Shown piece by piece: positions 937-20,890 of a stretch of DNA of 64,000 nt. The notes beneath the pieces are model-generated. The model was not told the DNA's origin. It searched no databases and saw only the letters and a program-made list of their open reading frames with translations. Location of the stretch: positions 85,861 through 149,860 of the forward strand of contig CAYPIR010000001.1 in assembly GCA_964410905.1 (NCBI GenBank), in the 5' to 3' direction. Positions within the stretch are counted from its first letter, which is position 1; the number at the start of each line of letters is the position of its first letter. The translations under genes were made by a program, and so were the position numbers. This DNA comes from an uncultured bacterium. Its GTDB lineage: Bacteria; Omnitrophota; Omnitrophia; Omnitrophales; Aquincolibacteriaceae.

Positions 937-954
937 TCAGTTTTTTTATCAACC

Positions 955-1326: not shown

Positions 1327-1346
1327 AAATTTCTCCTTTATTTATT

Positions 1347-2858
1347 TTAAATTGTTTGCGCTTTAAACACTTCTTCATCAGATGAGTTCGCTGATTGGTT
1401 TGATTCAGGCAATTGAATTATAAACATCGTTCCAATGCCAAGTTGGCTTTCAACTCTTACTGAACCACCGTATCTGTTAATAATTTGTTTCGTTACAAAG
1501 AGTCCAAGTCCGACAGCTTCATGTCGCGTCGTATAAAACGGATTGAAAATTTTATCAATACTCTCTTCCCCAATTCCCCGCCCCGTGTCGGAACAATAAA
1601 TTTCGATTAAATTTTCATTTTTCCGATATCGCAGCTCGACCGTGATTTTCCCGCCGCCAGAGACAGCCTCTACCGCGTTTAATAATAAGTTAAAGAACAA
1701 TTCGCGAATTTCCTGCTTATTTGCGTAATATTGAGGTAGCTCCGGATCAAGATTTCTCACAACCTCAATCCCATCAAGCGATGCCTGATATGCCAATAAC
1801 GCGAGCGTCTCGTCTAAAACCTTTTCAAGAGATACATATTCACAAGACGACTTAGTTTCTTGAGAATAAATAAGCAGCTTCTTTGTAATATCGGCAGCTC
1901 TTCGCGTTTGTTTAACTATTGTATTTAACGCGTCTTGAACTTTAGGGTCAAGACTCTTTGCCCCGCGCTGCATAAGAATAACCTGCGCCTTGCCGGAAAT
2001 AATCGCAAGCGGGTTGTGAATTTCGTGCGCAATCCCCGCCGCAAGCTTCTCAATGGCGTTTTGTTTTGTTTTTTGAATCCACTGCGATTGCGAATCCTGC
2101 AATTCATTGTTTATTTCGCGCAAACGCCGGACAACCATGGCGTTTTGAACGCAAGGAGCAATTTGTTCCGCGAATTTTCTAAAAATATGAAAATCCGTTT
2201 GATCAAAAATGGTCTCAGGGGTTTTTGCGCCAAATGCCAGAAAACCAATCAAGTTATCTTTAATAAAAAGCGGAGCGATCCAACCCGCTTGAAGCCCATC
2301 TAAATCTTTTGACAATTCATTTGCTTTCTGCCAAGTCAGACTCCGCAAAAGCGTGTCGCGCACAAGAATGTGCTGTCCCGCTTGATATATTGATTTAACT
2401 AGAAGAGAGTCTGATGAAATGCGGATTTTTTTTGACCTGGAAAGCTGCCAGCCGTATTGAGCAACTATTTCGTATTGATTTTGAATAGAATCAGATGTAA
2501 GTAGCGCGACCGTTTTGAGTCTAAACACATCGCCAAAAGTATTCACTACCAAATTAGCAACTTCTTGCAAATCCAAATTAACGACAAGATCTTTTACTAA
2601 ATCCGAAAGAGACACTTGAGCGAATGTTTTTTTTTGAAAAAAATACTTTTCGAGCAGCGCCTTTATTAAAAGATCAGCGGGTTTATACGCCGCGATAAAA
2701 ACAACCGTCATTAAAAAAATAGGGGAAAAAGGATGCCTTACCCAATACGAATAAGACTCATTCGCGAAACAAGAAATAAGATAAGAAACAAATGTCCCCA
2801 CGCAAAAAAGTGCCAACCCCACTAAGATTTTTCTTAAAATAATTTTGGGAGGTTTCAT
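1347..2858 (-). CDS. Sensor histidine kinase (2 N-terminal TM segments, GAF-like sensor, HisKA, HATPase_c)
   Basis: H-box AAGIAHEIHNPL; N/G-box region NLLLNAVEA...GTGIGE..GLGLF. Confidence 0.85.
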   Translation of the reverse strand: MKPPKIILRKILVGLALFCVGTFVSYLISCFANESYSYWVRHPFSPIFLMTVVFIAAYKPADLLIKALLEKYFFQKKTFAQVSLSDLVKDLVVNLDLQEVANLVVNTFGDVFRLKTVALLTSDSIQNQYEIVAQYGWQLSRSKKIRISSDSLLVKSIYQAGQHILVRDTLLRSLTWQKANELSKDLDGLQAGWIAPLFIKDNLIGFLAFGAKTPETIFDQTDFHIFRKFAEQIAPCVQNAMVVRRLREINNELQDSQSQWIQKTKQNAIEKLAAGIAHEIHNPLAIISGKAQVILMQRGAKSLDPKVQDALNTIVKQTRRAADITKKLLIYSQETKSSCEYVSLEKVLDETLALLAYQASLDGIEVVRNLDPELPQYYANKQEIRELFFNLLLNAVEAVSGGGKITVELRYRKNENLIEIYCSDTGRGIGEESIDKIFNPFYTTRHEAVGLGLFVTKQIINRYGGSVRVESQLGIGTMFIIQLPESNQSANSSDEEVFKAQTI

Positions 2859-2865
2859 TAGTCCT

Positions 2866-5697: not shown

Positions 5698-5710
5698 ATT
5701 TAAAATTGCC

Positions 5711-6568
5711 TTATTTTGAATTTAATTTTGAAATAACCGAGGTAATCAATGTATCAAGTCTTGGCCCCGCCGCGTTTGCCGTCTTTATAATTTCTTTAAT
5801 ATCGCATGGTGAAAGGTTGTCGGGATCGCACAAATCCGTAACAACGCTAAAGCCCAAAACTTCCATACCCATATGAATCGCGGCTATCACTTCCGGCACT
5901 GTGGACATTCCAACCAAATCCGCGCCGAACCCCCTCATCATCCGATATTCCGCGCGCGTTTCGAGACAAGGGCCTGACACTCCGATATAAACTCCCCGCC
6001 TAATAGAAATTTTATTTTCCAGCGCCGCGTCGTTTGCGATATTCAAAAGCCGTTTTGAAAACGGCTCGTTCATATCAGGAAACCGCGGTCCAAGTTTATC
6101 AATATTAGGTCCGACAAGCGGATTCGCGCCCATGAAATTAATTTGATCTTCAATAACAACAATGTCGCCTTTTTGAAAAGCAAGATTGAGTCCTCCGGCA
6201 GCATTAGAAACTATCAAAATTTTAACGCCAAGTCCGCGCAGCACGCGTATAGGAAATGTTACTTCATTAAGCGAGTAACCTTCATAAAAATGGAACCTGC
6301 CTTCCATTGCCGCTACTTTTTTTCCGCCCAACTCACCCAGTATCAGCTTCCCGCTATGCGATTCTACGGTAACTTTTGGAAAATGCGGCAGACTCGAATA
6401 CTCAAAAACAGTTTTATTTTTAATTTTACTAGAAGTATTCCCGAGTCCGGTTCCTAAAACCAGTGCGACATCTGGAATAAAATCTGTTTTTTCTCTTATA
6501 AGCGCAACCGTTTCTCGAATTTTTTCAAACTCGTGACTTGGGTCTTTTTCAAACCGTTTCATCGCCAT
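5711..6568 (-). CDS. Purine nucleoside phosphorylase (PNP/MTAP family, PunA-like)
   Basis: 285 aa; [23 protein letters not shown] motifs typical of PNP-I family. Confidence 0.8.
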
Positions 6569-6571
6569 AAT

Positions 6572-6871
6572 TTATCTGCCAAAATAATAGGCACAGTGAA
6601 TGAGAATTGTTACCAAAATTCGATTAGTTACATAAAGCGCGAAAAACGCGACTATAGGCGATAAATCCAACATTCCAATTTGCAAGGGAAGCTTTTTTAA
6701 TGGCTGCAAAATAGGATCAGTAATTTGTGTTAAAAATTGCACAAGGCTTGAATATGGATCTACCGGCAACCATGAAATAATAATTCGCGCGAAAAGCAGC
6801 CAATAAAGAAGCGTGCAAACACCGTTTACAAGCATAGCCAGGCCTTGAAATAAAATATCTAAAATAAACAT
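6572..6871 (-). CDS. YggT family membrane protein
   Basis: 99 aa, ARIIISWLP-type YggT motif, position next to proC/yggS. Confidence 0.75.
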   Translation of the reverse strand: MFILDILFQGLAMLVNGVCTLLYWLLFARIIISWLPVDPYSSLVQFLTQITDPILQPLKKLPLQIGMLDLSPIVAFFALYVTNRILVTILIHCAYYFGR

Positions 6872-7686
6872 TATTTTCCCTTCCGAAGTTCGCGGCTTCT
6901 TGTCATCGCCGCTTTCATCGCAGTCTTAAATCCGTTCGCGAATTTTTTGCGTTTTAAAGTTTGAAGAGCGGCATCAGTTGTCCCTTTTTTTGATGTAACC
7001 ATCTCGCGAAGTTGCGCAGTCGAAAAATCTGAGGACTTGGCAACGAGCGCCGCGCCAATCCCCGTCTGAATAGCAAGCAGCCTCGCGACAGAATTATGTA
7101 AACCGTTTTGAATGCCAAATTCTTCCATTAACTCCATCATATAAAAAAAATACGCCGGGCCGCTGCCGCTTAAGGCCGTAACCAAATCTAAATGTTTTTC
7201 GTCCAAAATAGCGACTTCGCCGCAACCGGAAAAGAAAACCTTAGAAAATAAAAGCGCCTGTTTTGAAGCGCTGGAAACCGCTGTCATTCCCGCGCCAACT
7301 TTCGCTCCCAAGTTCGGCATAGCGCGAACTATTGATATTTCTTCGCCTATTGCGGCTTTTATTTTCGCGATTGTCATTCCCGCCAAAATGGAGATAAGCC
7401 ATTTTTTTTCTGTCCAAAACTTCTTATTTTCACTGGCAAAAACGGCAAAATCCTGCGGCTTCATTGCGATTAGGACAACGTCAGATTTTTTAATAAGCTC
7501 TTCTGTTGAACTTACCAAATTTACTCGCGTTTTTTTTGCAAAATCCTTCAGTTTTTTGGCGTCTTTATCGAAAACAAAAATATTTTGAGGCGTCGTCAGA
7601 CCTTTGGAAATAACTCCTTCCAAAATAGAGGAGCCCATATTGCCTACGCCGATTACGCCTATTTTCTTGTTCCCCAATGTTTTCAT
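6871..7686 (-). CDS. proC: Pyrroline-5-carboxylate reductase
   Basis: 271 aa, KIGVIGVGNMG Rossmann start, ProC-like C-terminal dimerisation domain. Confidence 0.9.
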   Translation of the reverse strand: MKTLGNKKIGVIGVGNMGSSILEGVISKGLTTPQNIFVFDKDAKKLKDFAKKTRVNLVSSTEELIKKSDVVLIAMKPQDFAVFASENKKFWTEKKWLISILAGMTIAKIKAAIGEEISIVRAMPNLGAKVGAGMTAVSSASKQALLFSKVFFSGCGEVAILDEKHLDLVTALSGSGPAYFFYMMELMEEFGIQNGLHNSVARLLAIQTGIGAALVAKSSDFSTAQLREMVTSKKGTTDAALQTLKRKKFANGFKTAMKAAMTRSRELRKGK

Positions 7687-7687
7687 T

Positions 7688-8377
7688 TTACATTTTCTCC
7701 CTAGGAAAAATTAAGGACCCGATTCTAAGCATATTTGAGCCTTCTTCAAGAGCAATTCTATAGTCTTGAGACATTCCCATCGATATAGTTCGCCAGTCCC
7801 ATATTGGAAATTTTTGCTTAAAATTCTCAAATATTTTCCGGACATTTTTAAAACAGTCGCGAATTGCAATTTCATCTTCAGTGAGCGGCCCAATTGCCAT
7901 TAGCCCTTTTATATCAATTTCCGGAATTTTCGCGATTTGAGAAAGTATTTCTTCCGCCTCGTCAATTGCCGCGCCGGACTTCGTCTCTTCCCCTGAAGCG
8001 TTGATTTGAAAAAGACAAGCAACTTTCGCTATGTTTTTATTTTTCGCCTGCTTCGCGATTTCATTAGCAAGTTCCACGCGGTCAAGAGAATGAATTAAAA
8101 AAACATTTCCAACGACATATTTTGCTTTATTCGTTTGGAGCTGTCCAATTAAGTGCCAACGAATATCTCGCGGCAACTCTATCGATTTATCTCTCCATTC
8201 TTGAACTCTATTTTCCCCAAAGTCTCTTTCCCCCGCCTCATATGCCTCTAAAATTTTTTCATTGCTAATAGTTTTAGTTACAACTATTAACTCCGCGTCA
8301 GATTTATCCCGTCCCAAAGATTCAAGCGTATTTTCAATATCTTGTCTTAAATTTTTAAGGCTATCCAAAACGCTCAC
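7688..8377 (-). CDS. YggS/PLPHP family pyridoxal-phosphate homeostasis protein
   Basis: 229 aa, ...VVTKT...GENRVQE motif of YggS alanine-racemase-N-like fold. Confidence 0.85.
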   Translation of the reverse strand: MSVLDSLKNLRQDIENTLESLGRDKSDAELIVVTKTISNEKILEAYEAGERDFGENRVQEWRDKSIELPRDIRWHLIGQLQTNKAKYVVGNVFLIHSLDRVELANEIAKQAKNKNIAKVACLFQINASGEETKSGAAIDEAEEILSQIAKIPEIDIKGLMAIGPLTEDEIAIRDCFKNVRKIFENFKQKFPIWDWRTISMGMSQDYRIALEEGSNMLRIGSLIFPREKM

Positions 8378-9336
8378 TTTGCTTCTCCCGGAGGATACGC
8401 TCCGCGGACTATTTCAAAAAGCTTTATTACTTGTTTTCTATCAATAAGAAAAACGCCCTGTTCTCCTTCAACCATTCCATAATACGAGTCTTTATCAGCA
8501 ATCTCATCGCCGAACTGAATTGTTTTTTGCTCTCCGTTCTCAAGCGTTACCATCACTCTGTCGTGTATCAGAAAAAAACCCATATCAGCGTTGGATTTTT
8601 TATTGTCATCGAGAAACTCTTTTTTATTAAGCCCTTGAATCGCGGACGTTACCGCTCTTATTTGAGACTCAGAAGTTTTATCACCAAACCTCGCGATCGG
8701 CTCAAACCAATACCAACTTTCCCCTTCCTTTTTCCACTGAACGCTATACGCGCCCATTTCAATATAAATTTTTGTCCATTCTTTTGCCGGAGCCCTAATT
8801 GCGCGTTTGGCTCTAATCGAATAAATTGTTTTATCAAATACGGTTTTCATCTCGGGCTGCCACAAAAAATATCCGCGTTCTCTTTTCCATTTAGCATAAA
8901 ACGCTTTTCCGATTGGAACATTCGCGCCGAGCAAAAGCGTCTCTGTTTTCCCGTCAGATAAAATCACATTAATTTCCATTCGCGGATCTTTTAAACCATA
9001 TTCATCCCAGTCTTTTTCCGCCCGCAACCGCGGCTGTTTGGACGCCATTTGGACAGCGGCAGCCATTGCTTCGGCCGCGCCGGATTCTAAGAATGAAAAA
9101 ACAGGTTTTCCCATTTCCCAATTCTGTTCAGTTTTAATCACAGTGAAATTGATATTCTTTTCATAATTAATGACATTAACGCTTTTCACCCATTTTTTAG
9201 TCCCAAGTTCTACCTGGCGGGCAATTTCATCAGGGATAATCCCGTAAGATTCAAGGGAAAGACGATTTTGATAAATATACGCGGCAGCAGCAGCGGCAAG
9301 CAGCAGCAGAAAAACAACCGTCCTAGAAATCTTCAT
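8374..9336 (-). CDS. Signal-peptide protein, DUF4340-like partner of GldG-type ABC systems (start probably at M17, MKISRTVVFLLLL)
   Basis: N-terminal signal peptide; position immediately downstream of GldG-like gene; no recognisable catalytic motif. Confidence 0.45.
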   Translation of the reverse strand: MKISRTVVFLLLLAAAAAAYIYQNRLSLESYGIIPDEIARQVELGTKKWVKSVNVINYEKNINFTVIKTEQNWEMGKPVFSFLESGAAEAMAAAVQMASKQPRLRAEKDWDEYGLKDPRMEINVILSDGKTETLLLGANVPIGKAFYAKWKRERGYFLWQPEMKTVFDKTIYSIRAKRAIRAPAKEWTKIYIEMGAYSVQWKKEGESWYWFEPIARFGDKTSESQIRAVTSAIQGLNKKEFLDDNKKSNADMGFFLIHDRVMVTLENGEQKTIQFGDEIADKDSYYGMVEGEQGVFLIDRKQVIKLFEIVRGAYPPGEAK

Positions 9337-10709
9337 GATGTCCTGCGTCTTATTACAATAAAAAGACCGCCGGCAACACAGCATAAAAGCGGATAAATAC
9401 CCAGCACAGAAACCAGCAGATAAAGCCGCTTGGAAGGGCTAATAAAAAGAGGTTTAAATTTTGTTTCGGGGCGTTTAACATCGACAAACCTGGTATCATC
9501 AGCAAGCCATTTAATCAGGTTAAGCCCAAACTGTTTATTCCCGGAAAGATCAAAATAAGCATTGGTCAAAAAATCACCGTCGCCAACAATAACCATTCGT
9601 TTTTTTACATCTTCCGCTTCATTTTTTCCCTTTTCTGTTTTTTCAACCGTAACGGCTATCGGAAGCGGCCCCGCGATATCCGCCTTAACATCAAAAGACG
9701 CTTCGCCATTTTCAAGCGCCGCAAAATTAGTTTCCGCCCAACTTCCTTCAGCCGTCATCGCGAGAGGCAAGACCTCAATCCCTTCAGGCGTATCGACAGA
9801 CGGCTGCGTAACGCGGACAAGCGGGAAAAAAGTTGCTTGGTCTAGGCCTTTTGATATTTCGTGTTTTTTAAGATATTTGCTCACAAGCGGCATCAAAAAA
9901 TCACCGCCGACAACTCGGCTGGATTTGTCCACTATAATATTCTTTCCCAAATCCACGCCATACCGCTTCGCGAAATTCACAAATGACTGCCCTTCATTCG
10001 GGTCCATCGGGTCAATCAAAACCAAAACCCCTTTCCCCGTTTCAAACGCTTTGTCCAAATCCGCAAATTCATCTTCTGTCAAATCCCAACGCGGTCCCGC
10101 GAGCGCGACAACCTGACAAGCTTCAGGGATATGGTCGCGAGAAAGAATTATCGATTGAACCCGCGTGTTGTAATCGCGCATCAAATTACGAAATCGTCTG
10201 TAACCTCCCGTCCCGTCATCATCAAGAGAAACCTCACCATGCCCCGCCGTAAAACAAACCGTAATATCCTTGGGATTTAAAATTCTTAGAAACGCGTTTG
10301 TAAAAGACTCCTCATTTATTCTGGATGTGAGACGCTCTTCTCTGCCAAGCGACACAATCACTACGGTGTTCGGTTCTGTAACATTAAACTTTTGCGCTAA
10401 CTTTGGGCGGCGGTTTGGATCATAAAAATCATATTTCAATTTCGAATGATACCTTTTACATTCCTTAAGAAACATTTCAAGACCGCGTTTCGCGGGATCG
10501 TCTTGCGGATAAAAAAGCATCATCTCAACGGGATTTTTTTTCAATTCCGTCAGCACTTCCACGGTCGTCTTAGGCAAAGAGTAGATTTTATCCCGCGTTA
10601 AATCCCATCTTTCACTAAAGGGCTGAATAACGGCATATACAAGCGTAATGGTCGCGAGTAAAACAAGAGCTTCGATAAAAAGCTGTGTTTTGAGCAAGAA
10701 TTGCTTCAT
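9333..10709 (-). CDS. GldG-like ABC-transporter auxiliary protein (N- and C-terminal TM anchors)
   Basis: About 460 aa, N-terminal TM, C-terminal TM (LLVSVLGIYPLLCCVAGGLFIVI), sits after ABC-2 permease and ATPase. Confidence 0.6.
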   Translation of the reverse strand: MKQFLLKTQLFIEALVLLATITLVYAVIQPFSERWDLTRDKIYSLPKTTVEVLTELKKNPVEMMLFYPQDDPAKRGLEMFLKECKRYHSKLKYDFYDPNRRPKLAQKFNVTEPNTVVIVSLGREERLTSRINEESFTNAFLRILNPKDITVCFTAGHGEVSLDDDGTGGYRRFRNLMRDYNTRVQSIILSRDHIPEACQVVALAGPRWDLTEDEFADLDKAFETGKGVLVLIDPMDPNEGQSFVNFAKRYGVDLGKNIIVDKSSRVVGGDFLMPLVSKYLKKHEISKGLDQATFFPLVRVTQPSVDTPEGIEVLPLAMTAEGSWAETNFAALENGEASFDVKADIAGPLPIAVTVEKTEKGKNEAEDVKKRMVIVGDGDFLTNAYFDLSGNKQFGLNLIKWLADDTRFVDVKRPETKFKPLFISPSKRLYLLVSVLGIYPLLCCVAGGLFIVIRRRTS

Positions 10710-11485
10710 CAGGTTTTCCAATTACGCGTTTCAATTGAGCGAATAGTTAGAAACAAAAAGTAGAAAAAGAAAAATCCAAAGTAAATCAAATCCCGAGCGT
10801 CTAAAACTCCCACTGTGAAATTGCGGTAATGTTCCAGCGGCGAAAGTTCAGAAAAAAATCTCGCGATAGGGCCTGTTACGGCATCGTCCGCCCAATCCAA
10901 AATCCAAAAAAGAACAAGCATTGAAAAACTTCCGAAGGCGCTGATCATGGGATTTTTCGTCAAACTCGAAATGAAAACGCCCGCCGATAAATACGCGCTC
11001 CCAAGCAGCCAAAAACCTAAAAATCCTAAAATCGCCGGCGACCAATCACATTCTCCGCCAATGGCCTCCAAAACAAATCCATACGCGGCAAGAGGAACAA
11101 CAAGCAGAGTAAAAAACGCCTGAAGTCCAAGCTGCTTTCCCGCGACTATTTCAAAATCCGAAAGCGGATAGGTAAAAAGAATTTCCAAAGTCTCTTGTCT
11201 GCGTTCTTCAGAAAACGCGCGCATTGTTAATACGGGAATAAGGAAGAGAAGCAAAATGCTTATATTGATAAAAAATGAGCCGAAGATGTATTGACTTTGA
11301 TTAAGTCCGGAAAAATTAGAAAGCCCAAACGCCTGCGGGTTTATTGATATTTTCGCGTAGTTGAGCGTTAGCATTGTAAAAAAAACGCCCGTTATAAAAA
11401 AAAATAAGACCGTCATCATAACGCCGATCCACGAGTGAAAAATATTTGCAAATTCCCGTCTCGCCAGAGTTAAAACCTTTTTCAT
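10709..11485 (-). CDS. ABC-2 type transporter permease (GldF-like)
   Basis: 258 aa, about 6 TM segments, operonic with the ATPase. Confidence 0.7.
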   Translation of the reverse strand: MKKVLTLARREFANIFHSWIGVMMTVLFFFITGVFFTMLTLNYAKISINPQAFGLSNFSGLNQSQYIFGSFFINISILLLFLIPVLTMRAFSEERRQETLEILFTYPLSDFEIVAGKQLGLQAFFTLLVVPLAAYGFVLEAIGGECDWSPAILGFLGFWLLGSAYLSAGVFISSLTKNPMISAFGSFSMLVLFWILDWADDAVTGPIARFFSELSPLEHYRNFTVGVLDARDLIYFGFFFFYFLFLTIRSIETRNWKT

Positions 11486-12471
11486 TTTTTCAAGTCTCCC
11501 AACTCGCCCACCTCAAGAAGATACATAAAAATATCTTCAAGCGTCGCCGCTCGGCGGCGAATTTCAACAAGCGGTATATCGCGCTCAACAAACATCTTCG
11601 CAATGCGCGGTCTCAAATCTTCTTCGGTAGCAACTTGAAACGAGAAAAACAGCTCACCCGTCGGTTCCGCTAACACGAGCATTTTTTTTATATTAAGCGA
11701 TTTAAGCAAATCTCTTGCTTCGTTTTCTTTTTCCCTATTCTTTAAGCAAATTTGAATATTATCTTTATTTTTTAAAAACGCGGAAAGTTCTCTGACCGTT
11801 CCATTGGCCAAAATACTTCCATGATCAATCATCATCACGCGGTTACATAGAACAGAAACTTCTGACAAAATATGAGTCGATAAAATCACAGCGCGCGTCG
11901 CGGCAAATGATTCAATCACATCTCTTATTCCTTTAATCTGCGTTGGATCAAGCCCTGTCGTAGGTTCGTCCAAAATCAAAACATCAGGGTCCCCAATTAG
12001 CGCTTGCGTAAGTCCAATGCGTTGGCGATAGCCTTTTGAAAGCTGCCCAATGAGTTTTTTACCCATATCGCACAGCCCGCACAAATACATTTTTTCTTCA
12101 ATGTGTGTTTTTATCTTGCTTCGTTCGACATCTTTTAATTTAGCAACAAACGAAAGATATTCTGCCACCCGCATATCAGGATATAAATTAACCGTTTCGG
12201 GAAGATAACCAATGGAACGCTTCGCGAGACGAGGGTCTTTTGCCATAGGCTTCCCTTTAATCAAAACCTGTCCTGATGTCGGCGGAAAAAATCCAGAAAG
12301 AACTCTTAGCACCGTGGTTTTTCCGGCACCATTGGGGCCGAGAAAGCCAACAATCTCTCCTGGTTTAATTTCAAATGAAATATCTTTTAGGATTTCTTTT
12401 TCGTCATAATGCTTGAATATCTTTTCTACCTTGATAAGCGGCGGCTGAGATGAGAGGACTGTGGGCAGCAT
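11482..12471 (-). CDS. ABC transporter ATP-binding protein (GldA-like)
   Basis: Walker A GPNGAGKTT, signature LSKGYRQR, Walker B LILDEP. Confidence 0.9.
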   Translation of the reverse strand: MLPTVLSSQPPLIKVEKIFKHYDEKEILKDISFEIKPGEIVGFLGPNGAGKTTVLRVLSGFFPPTSGQVLIKGKPMAKDPRLAKRSIGYLPETVNLYPDMRVAEYLSFVAKLKDVERSKIKTHIEEKMYLCGLCDMGKKLIGQLSKGYRQRIGLTQALIGDPDVLILDEPTTGLDPTQIKGIRDVIESFAATRAVILSTHILSEVSVLCNRVMMIDHGSILANGTVRELSAFLKNKDNIQICLKNREKENEARDLLKSLNIKKMLVLAEPTGELFFSFQVATEEDLRPRIAKMFVERDIPLVEIRRRAATLEDIFMYLLEVGELGDLKK

Positions 12472-12473
12472 CG

Positions 12474-13685
12474 TTAAGCGGGTTCAACCCTTGCGAATTT
12501 GCGTTTGCCGCATTGAAGAATAAACGACTCTTTTTTAGAAATAATCATTTTAGGGTCTGATACTTTTTCTTGATCAAGCCGGACACCGCCTTGCAAAATC
12601 ATTCGCCGCGCTTCTGATTTACTCACAAATAACTTGGCATCAACAAGAATTGAGACAATATCAATCCCATTACAATTTATTTTTATAGCCGGAATTTCTT
12701 CGGGAACTCCTTTGTTTTTAAAAATTTCATCAAATTCCGAGCGCGCCTTTTTTCCCTCTTCTACAGAATAAAAAAGCTCAACCACTCGTTCGGCCAGCCC
12801 GGCTTTAGCTTCTCTAGGATGAATATTTCCGTTTTTAAGCCCATTTAATATTTCATCAACTTTCTTCATCGGAAGCGCGGCGACATAGCGGTAATACCTT
12901 TCAAGAAGCGCGTCAGGAATCGACATAACTTTCCCAAACATATCCCGCGGCGCGTCTTTAATAGCTATATGATTCTCTAAACTTTTGGACATTTTCTGAA
13001 TTCCGTCAAGCCCTTCAATCAGCGGAAGAGTAAGAACAACCTGAGGCTCTTGTCCATCGGACTTTTGAAGTTCCCTTCCGACCAACAGATTAAATTTTTG
13101 ATCTGTTCCGCCGATTTCCACATCCGATTTAATTTGAACAGAATCATGCCCTTGCATAAGCGGATACAAAAACTCCACAATCGCGATTGGAGCGTTTGCC
13201 TTATACCTTTTCGCGAAATCATCACGCTCCAAAATCCGTGCCACCGTGTATTGCGCCGTAAGCCGCAAAAAATCCTCAGGCCGCATTTTACCAAGCCACT
13301 CGGAGTTGTATCTGACTTCTGTTTTAGATTTATCGAGAATGCGGAAAACTTGTTCTTGGTAAGTCAAAGCGTTCGCTCGAACTTGTTCCTCGCTGAGCAT
13401 TGGACGCGTTGACGATTTTCCCGACGGATCGCCGATTCTCGCCGTGAAATCTCCTATGATGAACACAACTGTATGCCCAAGGTCTTGAAGTGAACGAAGT
13501 TTACGAAGCGGAACGGTATGCCCTAAATGGAGGTCGGGAGCGGACGGGTCCGCGCCATATTTAATTCTAAGCGGAATATTTTTTTTAAAAGAGGTCTCTA
13601 GTTTTGCGACAAGCTCTTTTTCCGAGATAAGTTCAACTAGATTTTCTTTGAAGACGGCAAGTTGTTCTTTGACAGGTAAAAACAC
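12474..13685 (-). CDS. tyrS: Tyrosyl-tRNA synthetase (GTG start) with C-terminal S4 domain
   Basis: 403 aa; PDLHLGH (HIGH), KMSKSLEN (KMSKS). Confidence 0.9.
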
Positions 13686-13848: not shown

Positions 13849-13918
13849 AAAAAAACGACATCGGTTCCAAACCTCCGCGTATTTTCGGCGGCATTGTTTG
13901 TCATCAATGTCGTTTTTT
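13849..13918 (-). repeat. Palindromic structured intergenic element copy E1 (A-run/CGACAT...ATGTCG/T-run; core ACAATGCCG in minus orientation). Probable bidirectional intrinsic terminator downstream of the giant gene
   Basis: Minus strand reads AAAAAACGACAT-TGATGACAAACAATGCCGCCGAAAATACGCGGAGGTTTGGAACCG-ATGTCGTTTTTTT. Confidence 0.6.
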
Positions 13919-14095: not shown

Positions 14096-17000
14096 TTACG
14101 CCGATCGCGCGATAAGCGACTGTTCGACAAAACGTTCCGCCAAAACGGCAATCGCGCTAATCCTAAAAACATTTCCATTTTTAGTAATACCCGGCAAATT
14201 CTCTTCTACAAATCTTGTCAAAAGGTCAGCCCGAACATCGGCGTCAGGAATATTGTGAATTAAATCCGCCGCCCTTTTCAATGCTGTGGCAAGAACGCTT
14301 GCGGCAAAAAGATTTTCGCCTCCCACTTTTTTATCAAGAATAAAATGATAACCGCTAGAAATAACGTTAGAGATATTTCCGCCTAAATCTAAGCAGATCA
14401 CGCTTCCGCCGCTTTGGGCTATCAACCGTTTTATAACCGTTATTTCCTTTTCCTTGCCTTCGCGGGCATGTTCAACACGAATAAGTTTATTATGTTTAAG
14501 CGCGGCAACTATGTTTGAGAGCATCTCTTTGTCATTGGCATCAACTACGTTTTTAGCCGACAGCGCTTTTTCAATTTTTTCTACAAGTTTGCGCTCGTCT
14601 TTGCTTACCGTCACAAATGCCGTTTCGATTCCATTTTCATAAGCCGCTTTTAGCAGATAAAAAAGCGCGCGCGGGCTATCACTAATAAACCGGGTTAAGA
14701 GCAATGGATCCATTAAAAGCGTTCCGCTGGGCAAATACTTTGTATTCACAGTCGCTTTGCCGGAAATTTCATCCGCGCCCCCTGTGCCGCGGTTAAAAAC
14801 AAAAGGCTTTGCTAAAAGACGCTGCCCTCCCGGAATCAATTTTTCTAAAACATCTGAAGAATCCTCTGACGAAAAATTATCATCTGAAATATCTATGAGA
14901 TCTCCAAGATATTCATAAAGTTCTGGAAACGCGTTTTCTTTCACAACTTTTTCATACAACCAAACTGGAATCAACCTATCGTAATATTCACGGATTATGA
15001 CGAGGAAAGATGAAGACATTATCTCCTTTGCGGTTTTTGCTTTTAAAGCCTGCCCATCAAATATCATATGTCTGTTTTGAATCTCTCCAAACTGGAATTT
15101 CAGAATCGCATCTGTCATAACATCCAAAGTGTTATACCAATAGATGACTCCAAACAAATCGCCTTGCTTTAACCCCAATGTTTTTTCCAACTCGAATTGA
15201 AATTCCACAAACTTGGTTTTGTCAAAACCAATATCATTAAAATGTTCCTGCACATACCGCGGCGCATTTGGCACAACGCGCCCTATTGCGCGTTGAATGC
15301 TGTTTCTAATTTCAACTCGCTTATCTGTGTTTTCGTCTTTTAAATACCTTGACTCGCTGCGGGCAGCCTCATCATCCTCTTCTTCCTCGCGCGCCGGCGG
15401 ACGAACACCCAAAAGTCTTTCTGATAAATTATCTGTTTTATTTAAAGCTCCACGCATTGCTATTTTGAAACGCACACGGGTAATATTCTGCTCTGTATCA
15501 ACCGCGCCGCTTCTTTTTCCGATGCCAATTTTTTTGTAATTAGCAAAATCTTTATCGCTAATTTCTGTTCCGTATTCTGTTTCCACTTTTTCACGGGCAA
15601 CGGCTGGAGCAAATTCTTTTTCTAGGAAAACGCGAAGGGAATGCGCGGATTTTGCCGTAATTATACTTAAAATTCCGGGGCCTCCGTTTTGAAACCTTCC
15701 AATTACTACCCAAGTAAAAATCGCGGAGATAGCCGCAAGTCCAAGCAAACTAGCCACCATGGAACTTCTTGCCAAATCGTGCGCTAAATAATCTAAAAAT
15801 CCCAGAGTCAGCAAAACGGTAGGCGTAAGCCCGATAAAAAATGCTAAATTCCTATGGGAGCTATATCTTTCAACTTCACGTAAAATATTAATAATTTTGC
15901 CTAACTCCCCATTTTCTACTAGCTCGCCGTATAGCGGATAATATTTAATCGCTTCAAAGGTTCGGCGAAGAAGCCCTATGTTTTCGCCAGTCGCATTTTG
16001 AACGATAAAGCCAATCTCAAAACGGGCTTCACTTTTCGCAACGTTCGCCTCAGAATATTCGTAAGAGGCGTTTGAATGAACAAACCCTTCTGTCACGACA
16101 GATTTGGGAACTGAAGATTCGTTTCCAGCCATTTCTAAATCAATTTCTGAGACTTGCGAAATATCGTTCAAACCCAATTTGTTAAGTTCCTTTACCAAAG
16201 AATCCCAAAGAGAGCCAGTTTCCGGCAATGTGTATTCCACCAAAATAGGTTTGCCATTTATCCATGCCGCAATCTGAATATTATTTATTGGCAGTCCATA
16301 AACTTTTTGTTTAATAAAATTAATTATTGAGCCTCTCTCGGCCCCATCGATAATAATTTTTATTGGCGGTAATTCGTTCCCTTTATGCCATTCTTTTGCC
16401 ATAGCAATGGATTGGCGCAAAAAATTATCAGAGAATCTCGAATCTGCCGCATGCTCTCTAGTCTCGCTTTTCACAACCAACGACGCTTCCAATCTGTCAA
16501 TTTTTAAATCTATAGCAGAAATTTCTTTTAAATTTTTTAAAAATATTGACGCGAGAGAAAGATAAGCATATGGCTTGTGTCGCGCTTGAGCATAACTATA
16601 GCGCCTTATAGGAGATGCTGCGTTTTCCCTGACAAGGTTATTTCTTTTTTCAAACAACATCTGAACCTCAGGGTCATTTCCATCATATGAATATTCCATC
16701 CAGTTACTGCGCTCTGACGCGCGCGAGGCAACTCTAGCCTTCAGGCGTTTTATGAGTCTATCAATCATGAGATTTATATCTTTAATAGCGTCTCGATTAC
16801 TCAAAAATTTCAAAGCAATAGGATCGCGGGCCTTTACCGCTTCTTGTAATTGGTAATCATAATAATTATTTACTTGTGAAGTTGCATTTTCACGAATAAG
16901 TTCGTTTCTTAGTCTATACAAATATCGCAGCTCCTGATCAATATCACGCTCACTTGAACGAGCAACATCATCTGTTTTTCCCTCATTTTTCTCCGCCACC

Positions 17001-20000
17001 GCTTTTTCGATTGCAGCGATGGCTTCTTCTACACTTTTTCTTGTCCAGTTTTTGTTATCAACTTTTTTATTAGATGGCAATTTTTCGAGAAATAATTTCA
17101 AAGGGACAAGTGCAGGTTCGGATTCAGCCCCCCAACGAATTAAGGCTAAACACATTTTATTGAAAACACTGCCTGAATCTTTTCTTTCAAAAGCAGCGAC
17201 AAGCTTTTCTATAACTTGAGGAGGAGGCTCTTTAATAAGGGCTATTATATTTGCAGCATCGGCACTGATTTTCCAATCGCTTGAATCTAAACGCATAAAC
17301 AGGAGGTCATATAAATTCTCTCTACCTTCTAATGCAATGCGCTCCATTATTTTATTTTTATCCGATTTATCTTCTGCAAAAGAAAGCCCCAACGTCCAAT
17401 CATCATCTGACAGTTTCACCTCTTTGGAGAGATACTGAACAACTTGCGAACTGGCATCTATCCCTTTAGGTAAATCCTTGAATCGTTCTCTTATCGCAAC
17501 GCTAGTCTTTATTTTTTCTATTGCATTTTTAACATCTTTCGCTGCCCGTCCATCATCTTTTTTATTCTTCTCAAAAGTTCGAGTCGGAAGTGTTTTGAGA
17601 TATTTTTCCAACTCTGGAATTGTTGAAGAAAATGCATACTTTGCAAGCGTGTCACAGATATATCCCACTAATCCATATGTCTTTCCAGAATTCAATTTTT
17701 CTAGCAAGTAGTCCGCTTCTTTTTTTGTCGGATTAGGGATTTCTGCTAAGGCACGAACAGCAGCCGTACTAACAAAAAAACTACTAGAAAAAAGTGATCT
17801 ATTGACTACGTCTATGGAAGCTGACGTATTTATTTTTACCAAAATAATCATCACTTCTTGATATTCGTCAGAGTTCATCGATTCATAATCTTTTGTGCGT
17901 TGAATAAAGACTGGCGCTAAATCATCAGGATATTTTTTGATAATCCTCTGATCCGCCGCGAGTTTTTTTGCCATTTCGTATTGTGTCTTGGCATCGCGGA
18001 TTTGTTTCATAACATTAATCATATCTTCCAAAACAGATTCATCATACGGTGTCCCAAGTAAAGCATAAGAAAGTGTCGCTCGAGCAACCAACACCTGAGG
18101 GTATAAAAGGCTATTTGTCTTCGAGCCTTTTATGATTTTCAAAAGTTCTGGTGCCGCTTTTTCCTTTGCATCTTCACCAATCAACCCCAACGCATGCGCC
18201 GCAAGCGGTTTTCCCGCCGCTAAATTTCCATTTAATTCCTCTATCAAAGGATCAACCGCAGATGCCCCAAACTTAGCTATAAGCGCCGCGGATTTTAACC
18301 CTACTTCGCTCGAAGCTTGCGAGCGAATATTTTTGAGTAAAAAATTAATAATTTCATCCTTCTTTTCAAGAATAGACTCATCTGCCGGATTATCACCTTC
18401 CGGCGTAAGCCGTTGTGATATTTCGCTAATGACCTGCAATTTTTGAGAATTCATTCCGAACTGAAATTGTTGTAAAAGTTTTTCAACAGGAGTTTTCGCT
18501 TTTTGTGCTTGAGAAAACCTTAAAGATTGCGTCTGCGCTGAAACAAACTCCGGTGCCAACGCTACGGAAAAACCGACAAGAAATGCTAACGCTAGCCTTT
18601 TTGCCGCTTGAGAAATTGCTAGGCCGTAGCGCATTATTTCCAACGCTCTAGCCTGCTCTTGAGCAGTAAGCCTTTCGGCTTCTTCAGCCGCAGCAACGGA
18701 GTCTTCCTCGCTTATATCGCTTGACATATCCTCATCTGCAGACCGCGTCTCAGACTTTGCGGGTGTCATATTATCCGCATCGGAAATTCTAGCTCTAACG
18801 GCGGCAAGAACTTCTGGATCTACTGTAACTTTTCGCGCCGTTTCTACTGTGGCTGCAACAACAGCTGGCGACACTCCCCCATCCGATACTGCTCGCGGAA
18901 CATCCCAAGCATAAGTCGAAGCTTTGGCGAGATTTGTAAAATTTCCCATTACCGCGTTGACATAATCTTTTCTTCCTCTTTCATCAACGGAAATCATCTG
19001 CGGCGTAATAAGAGCGTAAGTATAATTTTTATCCGAAAAGTATTTCTCAAAAGGTTTTGAGTGAAATCCTCCCGTAATGATCGCGACTCGCTTTGCGCCA
19101 AGCTCAGCTACGCGTTTTTCAATATTTTGCATCATTTCAAGATCGCGAGTTTTCGCCCCCGCGTAAAATGACATCGCGCGACCAAACAATTCATCTATTT
19201 TTTCCAAGTTCCCAAACGTTACATCTTTGACGCGCAAAACATCGTCATTTTGGGCAATTCCCCCAAAGCGGCTAGCAACTTTTGAAGGCAACAAGTTTCG
19301 CTCGCCTGCCAAAAGAATTTTTTCATAATCGTTTGCTGAAAGTTCTAGTGAAAAAAGTTTTTCTAAAACGCGATAATCTTTTAACACCGAGACAATCACC
19401 CTCTCCGCTGATGTTTTTGCCAGCCGCGCCACTATTTTTTCTTGCAAATTTTCTAGTTCAACAATAAGCGCTTCAGCCTTTATCTCGCTTTTTAAAAGAA
19501 GCGCGCCAATATAAAACCTGACATTTGGATATGCGTCATAATCAAAATCCGCTGGCAATCCTTTGACCATTTCTTCAAACAAAAAACCTGTTTCCGGATT
19601 AGGAAGCGCCAAATCACTATTTCTACTTGATAAAAGCCGTCCCACAGAAGCAAAAATGTCATCATATTTTTTATTTTGTGGAAAATTTTTTGCAAGCGTT
19701 CTTAAAAACTCAACACTTTCTTTAGAAAAAGAGACTTCATCTATTTTTGAATAAAATTCACGTAGTTTTAGAAGCCTGACAAATATTGGAAATTCAAATT
19801 GGTTTTGCGGTTCAGTTAAATCCAAATAAATAATTTTTTGTGCGGAATCTTTTAGAATAGTAATCCACGCGTCTAAAGACATTTTTGATGTTTCAAAATT
19901 TTCAAGATTACGTAAAAAAACTTTTAAGTCGTTTGAAAGATACGCGTCCGAAAATCTATTAACCGCTTCGTCCATTTTCCGTAAAAAATTCCCCGTTTTT

Positions 20001-20551
20001 TCCTTTGCTTTTATCGTTTCAGCAAACGCCTTTCCGTTCGCAATATATGAATCGAGATTTTCAATCCCATACGCTTTCGCGTCAGACTCAACTTTATCCA
20101 GCAAATAAAGTTCTTCGCCGCTAACAAGCGCCGCGCGCGTCAATGCGTCCGCTATTTTTTGATTAATCTCCTGATTTTGCGGAACAAAGTTTAAAGTCTC
20201 AGCTAAAACTTCCGAGGCAGAACCTTCTATCAGAAGCGTATCAATCCCATAATTTTTTTCTAAAAAATGAAGAATTTGTCTGATTTTTTGCTGCGCCTCA
20301 TACGAACCATGGGCGGTTTGAATATGCGCAATCATCGCGCCCTGCCCGGCTTTGAAGTTTTCTATTTTCCCAATATTGGCGGGCACAGAGAAAACAAAAT
20401 CCGCGTTGCGCGAAATCGCGACTTCGCTTTGCGGTATAAGGGATTGCGTTGCCGCCTGCAAATTAGGAACTGAGCCAAGACTTGTAAAAGCAAAAACTAC
20501 AACGGTAAAAAGTGAAACAACCGCTTTGGAAGTTTTGTTAAATTGATACAT
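14096..20551 (-). CDS. Giant (2151 aa) secreted/membrane protein with HEAT/PBS-lyase-like repeats; function unknown
   Basis: SD AAAGGA 8 nt upstream of ATG; N-terminal signal peptide ...FAFTSLGSVPNLQAATQ; HEAT-like AAHALGLIGEDAKEKAAPELLKII; two TM helices around residue 1650; single uninterrupted ORF. Confidence 0.8.
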   Translation of the reverse strand: MYQFNKTSKAVVSLFTVVVFAFTSLGSVPNLQAATQSLIPQSEVAISRNADFVFSVPANIGKIENFKAGQGAMIAHIQTAHGSYEAQQKIRQILHFLEKNYGIDTLLIEGSASEVLAETLNFVPQNQEINQKIADALTRAALVSGEELYLLDKVESDAKAYGIENLDSYIANGKAFAETIKAKEKTGNFLRKMDEAVNRFSDAYLSNDLKVFLRNLENFETSKMSLDAWITILKDSAQKIIYLDLTEPQNQFEFPIFVRLLKLREFYSKIDEVSFSKESVEFLRTLAKNFPQNKKYDDIFASVGRLLSSRNSDLALPNPETGFLFEEMVKGLPADFDYDAYPNVRFYIGALLLKSEIKAEALIVELENLQEKIVARLAKTSAERVIVSVLKDYRVLEKLFSLELSANDYEKILLAGERNLLPSKVASRFGGIAQNDDVLRVKDVTFGNLEKIDELFGRAMSFYAGAKTRDLEMMQNIEKRVAELGAKRVAIITGGFHSKPFEKYFSDKNYTYALITPQMISVDERGRKDYVNAVMGNFTNLAKASTYAWDVPRAVSDGGVSPAVVAATVETARKVTVDPEVLAAVRARISDADNMTPAKSETRSADEDMSSDISEEDSVAAAEEAERLTAQEQARALEIMRYGLAISQAAKRLALAFLVGFSVALAPEFVSAQTQSLRFSQAQKAKTPVEKLLQQFQFGMNSQKLQVISEISQRLTPEGDNPADESILEKKDEIINFLLKNIRSQASSEVGLKSAALIAKFGASAVDPLIEELNGNLAAGKPLAAHALGLIGEDAKEKAAPELLKIIKGSKTNSLLYPQVLVARATLSYALLGTPYDESVLEDMINVMKQIRDAKTQYEMAKKLAADQRIIKKYPDDLAPVFIQRTKDYESMNSDEYQEVMIILVKINTSASIDVVNRSLFSSSFFVSTAAVRALAEIPNPTKKEADYLLEKLNSGKTYGLVGYICDTLAKYAFSSTIPELEKYLKTLPTRTFEKNKKDDGRAAKDVKNAIEKIKTSVAIRERFKDLPKGIDASSQVVQYLSKEVKLSDDDWTLGLSFAEDKSDKNKIMERIALEGRENLYDLLFMRLDSSDWKISADAANIIALIKEPPPQVIEKLVAAFERKDSGSVFNKMCLALIRWGAESEPALVPLKLFLEKLPSNKKVDNKNWTRKSVEEAIAAIEKAVAEKNEGKTDDVARSSERDIDQELRYLYRLRNELIRENATSQVNNYYDYQLQEAVKARDPIALKFLSNRDAIKDINLMIDRLIKRLKARVASRASERSNWMEYSYDGNDPEVQMLFEKRNNLVRENAASPIRRYSYAQARHKPYAYLSLASIFLKNLKEISAIDLKIDRLEASLVVKSETREHAADSRFSDNFLRQSIAMAKEWHKGNELPPIKIIIDGAERGSIINFIKQKVYGLPINNIQIAAWINGKPILVEYTLPETGSLWDSLVKELNKLGLNDISQVSEIDLEMAGNESSVPKSVVTEGFVHSNASYEYSEANVAKSEARFEIGFIVQNATGENIGLLRRTFEAIKYYPLYGELVENGELGKIINILREVERYSSHRNLAFFIGLTPTVLLTLGFLDYLAHDLARSSMVASLLGLAAISAIFTWVVIGRFQNGGPGILSIITAKSAHSLRVFLEKEFAPAVAREKVETEYGTEISDKDFANYKKIGIGKRSGAVDTEQNITRVRFKIAMRGALNKTDNLSERLLGVRPPAREEEEDDEAARSESRYLKDENTDKRVEIRNSIQRAIGRVVPNAPRYVQEHFNDIGFDKTKFVEFQFELEKTLGLKQGDLFGVIYWYNTLDVMTDAILKFQFGEIQNRHMIFDGQALKAKTAKEIMSSSFLVIIREYYDRLIPVWLYEKVVKENAFPELYEYLGDLIDISDDNFSSEDSSDVLEKLIPGGQRLLAKPFVFNRGTGGADEISGKATVNTKYLPSGTLLMDPLLLTRFISDSPRALFYLLKAAYENGIETAFVTVSKDERKLVEKIEKALSAKNVVDANDKEMLSNIVAALKHNKLIRVEHAREGKEKEITVIKRLIAQSGGSVICLDLGGNISNVISSGYHFILDKKVGGENLFAASVLATALKRAADLIHNIPDADVRADLLTRFVEENLPGITKNGNVFRISAIAVLAERFVEQSLIARSA

Positions 20552-20821
20552 TAGAAATTCCTTTCGGATTATGGATTTAAATTTTCAAATTAAAATTTTT
20601 AAATAAAAACTGTTTTAGATTCATTTTTATATGTATTTATAAAGACGCGAAACCATAACACGCGTATTGGGATTCCGCAAGTGCGTCGGGATTTTTTTTA
20701 AAAGGATTTTTAATAGATCGGCATTGTGTGCCATTGTGGCGCAAGTTAATAATTTCGTGAATAGATTTAACTCTAAAAGTCGTTCTGTGCGTTGTTTTTT
20801 GACGTCTCAAAATCTTTTTAT

Positions 20822-20890
20822 AAAAAAAACGACATTAAGACCAGACAATGCCGTATGAAATAACGGAGGGCTGGTGTAATGTCGTTTTTT
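20822..20890 (+). repeat. Palindromic structured intergenic element copy E2 (core in plus orientation). Probable bidirectional terminator downstream of lpxA
   Basis: AAAAAAAACGACAT-TAAGACCAGACAATGCCGTATGAAATAACGGAGGGCTGGTGTA-ATGTCGTTTTTT. Confidence 0.6.

Follow-up and report, generated by a model that had tools for sequence, protein, structure and literature searches.

We analyzed a 64,000-nucleotide stretch of DNA (hereafter the window) from an uncultured bacterium of the phylum Omnitrophota (family Aquincolibacteriaceae), which carries on its minus strand a single gene for a protein of 2151 residues, referred to below as the query. The gene belongs to a very large, Omnitrophota-specific family for which neither Pfam nor NCBIfam has a matching model. 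The architecture of this family can be stated with high confidence: a conserved N-terminal head, a conserved C-terminal tail, cargo modules between them, and a short boundary motif, R-[SA]-E-x-R. In the query, the motif, with Lys as an alternative at its first position ([RK]-[SA]-E-x-R), marks every module boundary. On balance, the best explanation appears to be a punctuated polyprotein, and we modestly favor cleavage at the motif itself; that the head domain is the protease is put forward more tentatively.

Family and overall architecture

A search with the full-length protein returned 25 proteins of 1200–3700 residues, each named one coming from a metagenome-assembled genome of Candidatus Omnitrophota. 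They resemble the query at its two ends only: residues 1–545 match with 21–44% identity in all of them but the N-terminally truncated P0025 and P0026, residues ~1940–2151 match in a subset, and the middles are unrelated. The head was aligned from 23 sequences (alignment A1), and the resulting profile was scored against 1.84 billion cluster representatives (50% identity clusters). It matched 10,198 representatives at E≤1e-3 and 7,119 at E≤1e-30. Among the 150 best-matching proteins listed, the head begins within the first ~60 residues in every case, and total lengths range from 500 to 7800 residues, making the query a small member. A preliminary description of the gene, made from its sequence before any database search, had asked whether orthologues are split into two or three genes; the relatives are instead mostly longer, as the lengths of these best 150 indicate. 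The same description lacked the defining features of the protein, namely the family-wide head and tail and the [RK][SA]ExR punctuation.

A pattern scan of GTDB species genomes located 57 loci, and every one with a name is from Omnitrophota except for a single contig labelled ‘uncultured Planctomycetales’. Several of these genomes have two to four head-bearing paralogues. Two (L027 and L030) lie ~12.7 kb apart on contig JBAYGD010000013.1, and genome JAHFHI01 carries four (L022, L047, L051 and L055).

Three relatives, P0002, P0003 and P0005 (3346, 2672 and >1562 residues), occupy the exact locus of the query, in the order S1–FabF–LpxA–giant gene–TyrRS (tyrosyl-tRNA synthetase)–ABC. At this position the head is kept, the tail is kept in both complete relatives (as judged by BLAST) and the cargo is exchanged, the four orthologous LpxA–TyrRS loci containing four different cargo sets. 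The locus encoding P0005 (L001) has one in-frame TGA (10687-10689) inside a low-complexity, degenerate-looking module, past which the frame stays open for at least 894 codons with six further R[SA]ExR motifs. This stop could reflect a decaying module, a sequencing error or read-through.

The boundary motif

Motif frequencies were determined in 159 family proteins (158 relatives and the query). R[SA]ExR is present in 816 copies, compared to 25 expected; 86 of the 159 proteins have at least three, and single homologues contain 7–12 copies where 0.1–0.3 would be expected. Permuted patterns yield 22–42 copies, with the exception of R.E[SA]R, whose 207 copies include overlaps with genuine RSE[SA]R sites. 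The motif is 20–35 times commoner than most of its permutations, and these controls rule out a compositional accident of linkers rich in Arg, Ser and Glu. With Asp in place of Glu there are only 7 copies, indicating that Asp is not tolerated. The query contains four copies of [RK][SA]ExR, compared to 0.23 expected, located as follows:

18743-18757, minus strand: boundary motif 1, KSETR at residues 599–603, closing the head module (motif scan)
16457-16471, minus strand: boundary motif 2, KSETR at residues 1361–1365 (motif scan)
16022-16036, minus strand: boundary motif 3, KSEAR at residues 1506–1510 (motif scan)
15347-15361, minus strand: boundary motif 4, RSESR at residues 1731–1735 (aligned with AARSESR of orthologue P0002)

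The alignment of the fourth copy with P0002 holds residue for residue, and the sequence following the first, SADEDMSSD, matches VGDEDMSSD after a P0002 motif. Outside the giant gene, the coding open reading frames (ORFs) of the window encode 18,035 residues with 3 copies of R[SA]ExR, a slight excess over the 0.5 expected.

The distribution of the motif follows the modular organization of the family. Its first occurrence is at a median of residue 619 (interquartile range 582–654), just past the head, and 85 proteins together have merely 3 motifs within their first 500 residues. Modules between motifs have a median length of 205 residues, the size of an ordinary protein or domain, and the tail module after the last motif has a median length of 278 residues.

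The ends of recognizable complete proteins, taken from Pfam envelopes, fall within a few residues of the motif. In P0005, RAEVR is followed without a gap by CsrA, whose match opens at profile position 1 and includes its native Met. In P0014, UDP-glucose dehydrogenase, likewise matched from profile position 1, begins 7 residues past RSEAR, and the hexokinase match runs to the last of its 242 profile positions, ending 3 residues short of RSEQR. Canonical leaders of the twin-arginine translocation (Tat) type (SRRSFLS, RRDFLK and RRQFLK) are also often found right after the motif, as are Sec-like leaders; one such junction reads RSESR-LKKISRGQSQDSFNASRRSFLSGVGAWALSGAASSVFA. Tat-like leaders follow 7 motifs, compared to 0.4 at random positions, and hydrophobic leaders follow 56, compared to 19, so that either kind is 3–17 times enriched after motifs.

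The variable position x is mostly Val, Leu, Ala or Met, and tends to be the same residue in paralogues of one genome. The residue after the motif is small (Ser, Ala or Thr), and those upstream are rich in Ala, Ser and Pro. Copies from the window and from L002 use TCN as well as AGY codons for Ser, and CGN as well as AGR codons for Arg. As the codons vary between copies, selection acts on the peptide, and a DNA-level repeat or recombination scar can be ruled out. An origin as a translated Shine-Dalgarno or intergenic relic was likewise rejected: GCC GAG GTG CGG ATG of P0005 is Shine-Dalgarno-like, but the copies in L002 and the window are not.

Three relatives (P0012, P0013 and P0016) lack R[SA]ExR and have A-x-SLG instead, with 3–4 copies compared to ~0.1 expected, which in P0012 and P0013 are located between the enzyme domains. 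A-x-SLG is a second, mutually exclusive punctuation “dialect”.

Cargo modules

The cargo of the homologues is diverse, including HAD, PP-binding, UDPGP, CsrA, AAA/WD40 and PAS/HisKA/receiver modules, as well as isocitrate lyase–malate synthase–PEPCK (phosphoenolpyruvate carboxykinase), UDP-glucose dehydrogenase–hexokinase, SNF2, sigma-70 and amylase. The query carries a transmembrane (TM) plus HEAT unit, two small helical units, a small domain and a two-TM unit.

The genomic context of two chains touches on where the cargo acts. At locus L062 (positions 23-3520 and 3814-12972), the chain of head, isocitrate lyase, malate synthase and PEPCK (P0012) lies directly downstream of aceK, the gene for isocitrate dehydrogenase kinase/phosphatase. 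The P0012 gene amounts to an ace operon whose enzymes are fused in one ORF behind a head. The sensor-kinase chain P0008 adjoins kinase and response-regulator genes. The cargo therefore appears to work in the producer's own cell.

The head domain

The head could be modeled with AlphaFold2 from the 23 aligned sequences at a mean predicted local distance difference test (pLDDT) of 84 and a predicted template modeling score (pTM) of 0.76. The model consists of an N-terminal helix (residues 6–25), a disordered linker and an α/β core, whose strands are formed by residues 61–67, 73–79, 105–108, 159–162, 488–494 and 511–517. An all-helical insert of ~320 residues (166–484) interrupts this core. The principal features of the head are:

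18917-20389, minus strand: conserved head domain, residues 55–545, a candidate TIKI-superfamily hydrolase (alignment A1, AlphaFold2 model and profile matches)
20309-20311, minus strand: H81, the invariant His of the HIQxAH motif (alignment; compare RRSP H3902 and Bcr135 H85)
20225-20227, minus strand: E109, an invariant Glu 28 residues past H81 (alignment; compare Bcr135 H85/E113 and RRSP H3902/E3930)
19061-19075, minus strand: TGGFH motif (the second GxxH), residues 493–497 (G494, G495, F496 and H497 invariant, T493 nearly so)

Residues invariant in all 23 homologues are H81, Q87, E109, G110, G162, Y169, N172, F462, Y463, R469, the G494-G495-F496-H497 run, P517 and Y530; H76, Q78, A80, D470 and T493 are nearly so. 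The TIKI superfamily is defined by a parallel-sheet core flanked by helices and a set of two His and two Glu residues, which are E3900, H3902, E3930 and H4030 in RRSP and include the H85/E113 pair in Bcr135 (PMC6254334). This signature reads as E-x-H, a Glu ~28 residues later and a distal His, and the query matches three of its four residues. The spacing of 28 between H81 and E109 is equal to that of the corresponding pairs in both Bcr135 and RRSP.

Sub-threshold matches to ChaN of Pfam (Cofac_haem_bdg, Tiki superfamily) occur at the same place in 6 of 33 members (E 0.005–0.12, 11–17 bits, compared to a cut-off of 27.7), and in the three matches available in detail the head region up to TGGFH aligns with the C-terminal part of the profile. 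Foldseek returned weak matches (E above 1), among which the sole recognizable folds were EreC, Bcr135/136 and HopBA1. Bcr135, Bcr136 and HopBA1 are TIKI members (PMC6254334), and EreC belongs to the related Ere family. A search of PDB sequences with the head profile found nothing. The preliminary description had offered, as a weak impression, a resemblance of the first ~600 residues to the TraB/GumN/Tiki family; this has fared better than might be expected, given the invariance of H81, E109 and H497, the conserved spacing and the agreement of the ChaN and Foldseek matches, sub-threshold as they are. Thus, we consider the head, with moderate confidence, to be TIKI-like rather than a demonstrated member of the superfamily.

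The first hydrophobic segment has, family-wide, a mean net charge of +2.8 on its N-terminal side and −0.45 on its C-terminal side. By the positive-inside rule, this bias would place the head on the far side of the inner membrane, either exported or anchored to the outer face of that membrane. An extracytoplasmic location with a membrane anchor is also known for Tiki, PrgY and ChaN.

The tail module

The tail domain (the last ~215 residues) stands at the exact C-terminus in 36 of the 158 relatives. Its AlphaFold2 model (pLDDT above 90) is a Rossmann-like α/β fold with no significant structural neighbor in the PDB, and a profile search of PDB sequences also found nothing. A Pfam scan of tail-module members gave a single match, to PP-binding in one member (P0002, E 7.9e-7). 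In the tail alignment, the terminal Ala is invariant, and the sole other residues that are invariant or close to it are one Asp and one Leu; Ala is the last residue of 94 of the 159 family proteins, with -SA, -AA and -MA as the prevailing endings. With so few invariant residues and a generic fold, the tail is unlikely to be a protease. It does not look like an enzyme, and may be a recognition or completion module.

The PP-binding match concerns the first part of the tail module. The P0002 counterpart of query residues 1736–1935 is acyl-carrier-like (…LGMDSLD…), and the equivalent site in the query reads …IGFDKTK…, with Lys replacing the phosphopantetheine-attachment serine. Carrier function has therefore probably been lost in the query.

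Module organization of the query

The remaining features of the protein, in order from the N-terminus, are listed below; hydrophobic segments were located by Kyte-Doolittle hydropathy.

20468-20524, minus strand: N-terminal hydrophobic segment, residues 10–28, signal peptide or signal anchor (hydropathy 2.14)
18539-18595, minus strand: internal signal-peptide-like segment, residues 653–671 (…FVSA/QTQ), at the start of module 2 (hydropathy)
17693-17881, minus strand: HEAT_2 repeats, residues 891–953, within module 2 (residues 604–~1200) (Pfam)
16721-16942, minus strand: duplicated small helical module, copy 1, residues 1204–1277, ending in a degenerate RASER (self-alignment)
16457-16678, minus strand: duplicated module, copy 2, residues 1292–1365, ending in boundary motif 2 (self-alignment)
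16037-16456, minus strand: module 3, residues 1366–1505, a small domain of no assigned function (weak homology to P0002 residues 2048–2135)
15701-15850, minus strand: two neighboring TM helices, residues 1568–1617, in module 4 (residues 1511–1730) (hydropathy)
14747-15346, minus strand: first part of the tail module, residues 1736–1935, helical, low-confidence model (acyl-carrier-like in P0002)
14099-14734, minus strand: conserved tail domain, residues 1940–2151, Rossmann-like α/β, ending in …LIARSA (AlphaFold2 and homology)

Much of this anatomy had been anticipated in the preliminary description. The N-terminal signal peptide proposed there corresponds to residues 10–28, which have the geometry of one by hydropathy (K6 and K9 precede the segment and …NLQA/AT follows), and both a signal peptide and an anchor would fit. 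The second signal-peptide-like segment, placed at ~640–670, was recovered at 653–671. Its suggested origin as a relic of gene fusion is in keeping with its location, since it sits 50 residues past a module-boundary motif. An internal duplication of ~60 residues around 1270–1400 proved to be real: residues 1204–1277 and 1292–1365 align with a score of 101, compared to 29±5.4 for shuffled sequences (z=13). The pair of adjacent TM helices exists (residues 1568–1589 and 1599–1617), although it had been placed near 1650, ~50–80 residues too far along. Similarly, the C-terminal region described as ~480 residues with no placeable motif is found at 1736–2151, of which just the last ~215 residues are conserved and confidently folded.

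HEAT repeats had also been predicted in the middle of the protein, as PBS-lyase/HEAT-type, and HEAT_2 does exceed its Pfam gathering cut-off of 27.7 at residues 891–953 (31.8 bits in the whole protein, 36.7 bits in module 2 alone; E 1.8e-7). However, the description of the protein as in essence a giant HEAT-repeat envelope protein does not hold, as this is one incidental cargo module shared with 1 of the 158 relatives (module 2 is homologous to P0002 residues 1555–1958). HEAT_2 is the sole hit above threshold in Pfam and NCBIfam scans of the whole protein, the remainder being sub-threshold and spurious. One spurious match, to NCBIfam SerC at residues 1138–1229, scored 22.8 bits against a cut-off of 253. 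Module 3 has no family match in a Pfam scan, and iterative searches of the 158 family proteins gave no relatives of modules 3 and 4; the P0002 segment weakly similar to module 3 likewise ends at a boundary motif.

The locus and its flanking hairpins

The gene is embedded among housekeeping genes of the same strand, with DAHP synthase, prephenate dehydrogenase, S1, FabF and LpxA on one side. TyrRS lies on the other side, followed by an ABC transporter with a GldG-like auxiliary protein. The gene and its immediate flanks comprise:

14096-20551, minus strand: whole ORF, 2151 residues plus stop codon (single frame, ATG start; identical to database protein P0001)
20559-20563, minus strand: AAGGA, Shine-Dalgarno-like, 7 nt 5′ of the ATG (read from the sequence)
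13852-13916, no strand: downstream hairpin with an A-tract and a T-tract, terminator-like (fold z=−5.7)
20826-20888, no strand: upstream hairpin with identical stem sequence, between lpxA and the giant gene (fold z=−7.2)

The preliminary description had recognized the single 6.4-kb ORF with its Shine-Dalgarno sequence and ATG, without giving the strand, and had noted structured repeats on both sides, which are the two hairpins. Their stem, AAAACGACAT…ATGTCGTTTT, occurs just twice in the window, where 0 copies are expected; the stem base AAAAACGACAT/ATGTCGTTTTT is common to both and the interiors differ. The stem was not found in 59 related loci, and an Rfam scan of the gene and its flanks matched no family. 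Because of their A-tracts and T-tracts, the hairpins look like bidirectional terminators that would isolate the giant gene as its own transcription unit.

Downstream of TyrRS (window positions 8374-12471) are an ABC ATPase, an ABC-2 permease, the GldG-like auxiliary protein (ABC_transp_aux) and a DUF4340 protein, a cluster found in identical order at the orthologous loci L002 and L063.

Proposed processing and alternative explanations

We propose that the chain would be translated as one unit, from a transcription unit of its own bracketed by the terminator-like hairpins, and then cut at or just past the second Arg of each motif. For the query this would mean five products, with a sixth if the degenerate RASER were also used: an exported or anchored head (residues ~29–598), a HEAT protein with a signal-like leader and two helical units (604–1360, perhaps split at RASER), a 140-residue domain (1366–1505), a two-TM protein (1511–1730) and the tail module (1736–2151). 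Products starting with a signal-like segment would be exported or inserted into the membrane, and the others would stay in the cytoplasm. The interpretation of the motif as a processing site is suggested by complete proteins that start right after it with their own Met or a Tat or Sec leader, by the strictness of the basic–acidic–basic pattern, in which Asp is not tolerated, and by the mutually exclusive dialects together with the shared variant among paralogues of one genome. The head might be the processing enzyme, or might at least free itself at the first site. This weaker part of the proposal follows from the presence of site-specific endopeptidases in its probable superfamily, and from its being the sole conserved module that looks catalytic.

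Several observations weigh against this proposal. A conserved boundary motif could serve a purpose other than cleavage. Three of the four query motifs have Lys in first position, a variant that is rare in the family (33 copies, compared to 806). Members of a distant clade, with C-termini …RSL or …EAL, keep the head, yet motif discovery found no punctuation in them, so the function of the head is not strictly tied to the motif. The TIKI assignment itself rests on sub-threshold profile matches and Foldseek matches at E above 1: the head has no significant match in Pfam (PF01963, PF04187 and PF05139), NCBIfam or the PDB profiles, and the query has Thr79 at the first acidic position of the two-His/two-Glu set, which is often Asp, Glu or Asn in homologues. 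Finally, the head is predicted to be outside the cytoplasm, yet most motifs, along with the CsrA, sigma-factor and kinase cargo, would have to be inside. A periplasmic head could not reach cytoplasmic sites, and would need to cut before export or to cut its own junction only.

The same architecture could instead belong to one uncleaved chain, a membrane-anchored scaffold of unrelated domains in which the motif is a conserved linker element, for example one that acts as a hinge, is docked onto or phosphorylated, or signals pausing or folding during translation. We regard this as rather unlikely. It would need no cleavage, and it agrees with the published models of long Omnitrophota proteins, which are single membrane-anchored chains with many TM helices. 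The flanks of the motif are rich in small residues (Ala, Ser and Pro upstream; Ser, Ala and Thr at P1′), as in flexible linkers, and the conserved head and tail could be two ends of one machine. However, Tat or Sec leaders and native initiator Met residues right after a motif would be of little use within a chain, and a strict Arg, Glu, Arg pattern that excludes Asp would be unusual for a passive linker. That R[SA]ExR and AxSLG exclude each other suggests a factor that recognizes them and co-evolves with them, and it is hard to see why CsrA, sigma factors and glyoxylate-shunt enzymes should be tied to a signal-anchored head. An improbable alternative is a secreted or surface platform that delivers effectors to prey or host in the manner of MARTX toxins, the head and tail serving export and the cargo being released outside or in the target. 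The N-terminal signal sequence would suit such a role, as would the view of Omnitrophota as epibionts or predators whose giant proteins are linked to prey attack. Conserved ends, variable arrayed cargo and repeated candidate cleavage sites do resemble MARTX, and RRSP, a TIKI-family protease, is a MARTX effector (PMC6254334). The cargo, though, is tied to the producer's own pathways (aceK by the isocitrate lyase–malate synthase–PEPCK chain, two-component genes by the kinase chain), which argues against delivery, and the Tat and Sec leaders and TM helices of the modules make sense in the producer cell only. Moreover, Pfam and NCBIfam scans of the query gave no glycine-rich repeat, cysteine-protease or RTX family, and the gene lies among housekeeping genes at a conserved locus. 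An artefactual ORF, whether an assembly chimera or a decaying read-through pseudogene with an accidental motif, could be suspected from the metagenome-type origin of the window and from the in-frame stop in the degenerate-looking module of P0005. The preliminary description had named an assembly artefact as what would overturn it, but the same head is present at the same locus in three other assemblies, in a gene that is intact or (L001) has the single in-frame stop, and the tail is present in two of them. A 6.4-kb open frame is far beyond chance, the head family has ~10,200 cluster representatives, head and tail fold confidently, and the motif is order-specific, exceeding most permutations 20–35 times. 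This explanation is effectively refuted.

Relation to known systems

Very long proteins of Omnitrophota have been described as “Archaeovorins” (West-Roberts et al. 2023, bioRxiv 10.1101/2023.11.21.568195) and as “multi-enzyme metabolic clusters” (Nielsen & Lui 2026, bioRxiv 10.64898/2026.06.07.730766). In these studies, post-translational cleavage is suspected, C39 or S8 peptidase domains are proposed for it, and the cleavage points are stated to be unknown. Such proteins resemble the present family in phylum, in having an N-terminal signal peptide and interspersed TM helices, and in combining unrelated complete domains in one ORF, as the homologues of the query do (HAD, HATPase_c, hexokinase, HEAT and response regulators). 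They differ in size, the lower limit being 10,000 residues in one study (Nielsen & Lui) and 30,000 in the other (West-Roberts), compared to 2151 for the query and 500–7800 for its best 150 relatives. The query itself has just HEAT_2 and four hydrophobic segments, whereas its homologues, including those at the same locus, carry many enzyme domains. Term searches of the published work on Omnitrophota giant ORFs turned up no account of R[SA]ExR punctuation, a TIKI-like head or a conserved tail, and a full-text search for Omnitrophota together with “polyprotein” gave no match; the literature covered was not exhaustive in either case.

With the TIKI/TraB-PrgY/Ere/ChaN superfamily, the head, as modeled, shares an α/β core in which an early strand precedes a His, followed at a distance of 28 residues by a Glu, and a late strand precedes the His of a GxxH. 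This superfamily includes the site-specific endopeptidases Tiki and RRSP (PMC6254334). The head differs in lacking a match at curated thresholds, in the ~320-residue helical insert that splits its core, in the Thr at the first acidic position of the query and in being always the first module of a giant chain.

The family resembles MARTX toxins in its conserved ends, in its array of unrelated modules (strain-variable in MARTX) and in the release of modules through cleavage at their junctions, which here is a candidate mechanism. Characteristic of MARTX toxins are glycine-rich repeat regions, type I secretion and a cysteine protease domain that inositol hexakisphosphate activates. In contrast, scans of the query gave no repeat, cysteine-protease or RTX family, and the cargo looks like the cell's own metabolic and regulatory proteins. 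Viral polyproteins and multi-core precursors of ribosomally synthesized and post-translationally modified peptides also combine several units, a repeated short recognition sequence and a candidate protease in the same chain. The present family is distinguished from both by a cellular chromosomal locus among housekeeping genes, by units that are full-size enzymes, regulators and membrane proteins, and by thousands of paralogous chains with differing cargo across a phylum.

Biological implications

The giant genes of Omnitrophota are a recognized puzzle, in which, according to the published studies, the missing cleavage points have blocked both structure prediction and functional interpretation. 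The motif described here provides explicit candidate cut sites, a means of dividing giant ORFs into units, and a possible processing domain whose presumptive catalytic residues can be named. Should cleavage not be confirmed, a very large family without a Pfam or NCBIfam model match would nevertheless be defined by its motif, head and tail. If cleavage does occur, the family would represent a chromosomal, phylum-wide bacterial polyprotein strategy, with cargo swapped freely at a fixed locus.

A wider reading, which is conceivable but which we hold with less than even confidence, is that Omnitrophota make much of their proteome in the form of cellular polyproteins, in which whole former operons are fused in frame behind a signal-anchored TIKI-like head and before a conserved tail, and are cut by the head or by a co-evolving protease at motif dialects that are specific to lineages (R[SA]ExR or AxSLG). 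Metabolic enzymes, CsrA-type regulators, sigma factors, sensor kinases, and exported and membrane proteins would then all be made in this way, and modules, once freed, would rely on Tat or Sec leaders of their own. Until now, gene expression of this kind has been known in viruses but not on bacterial chromosomes.

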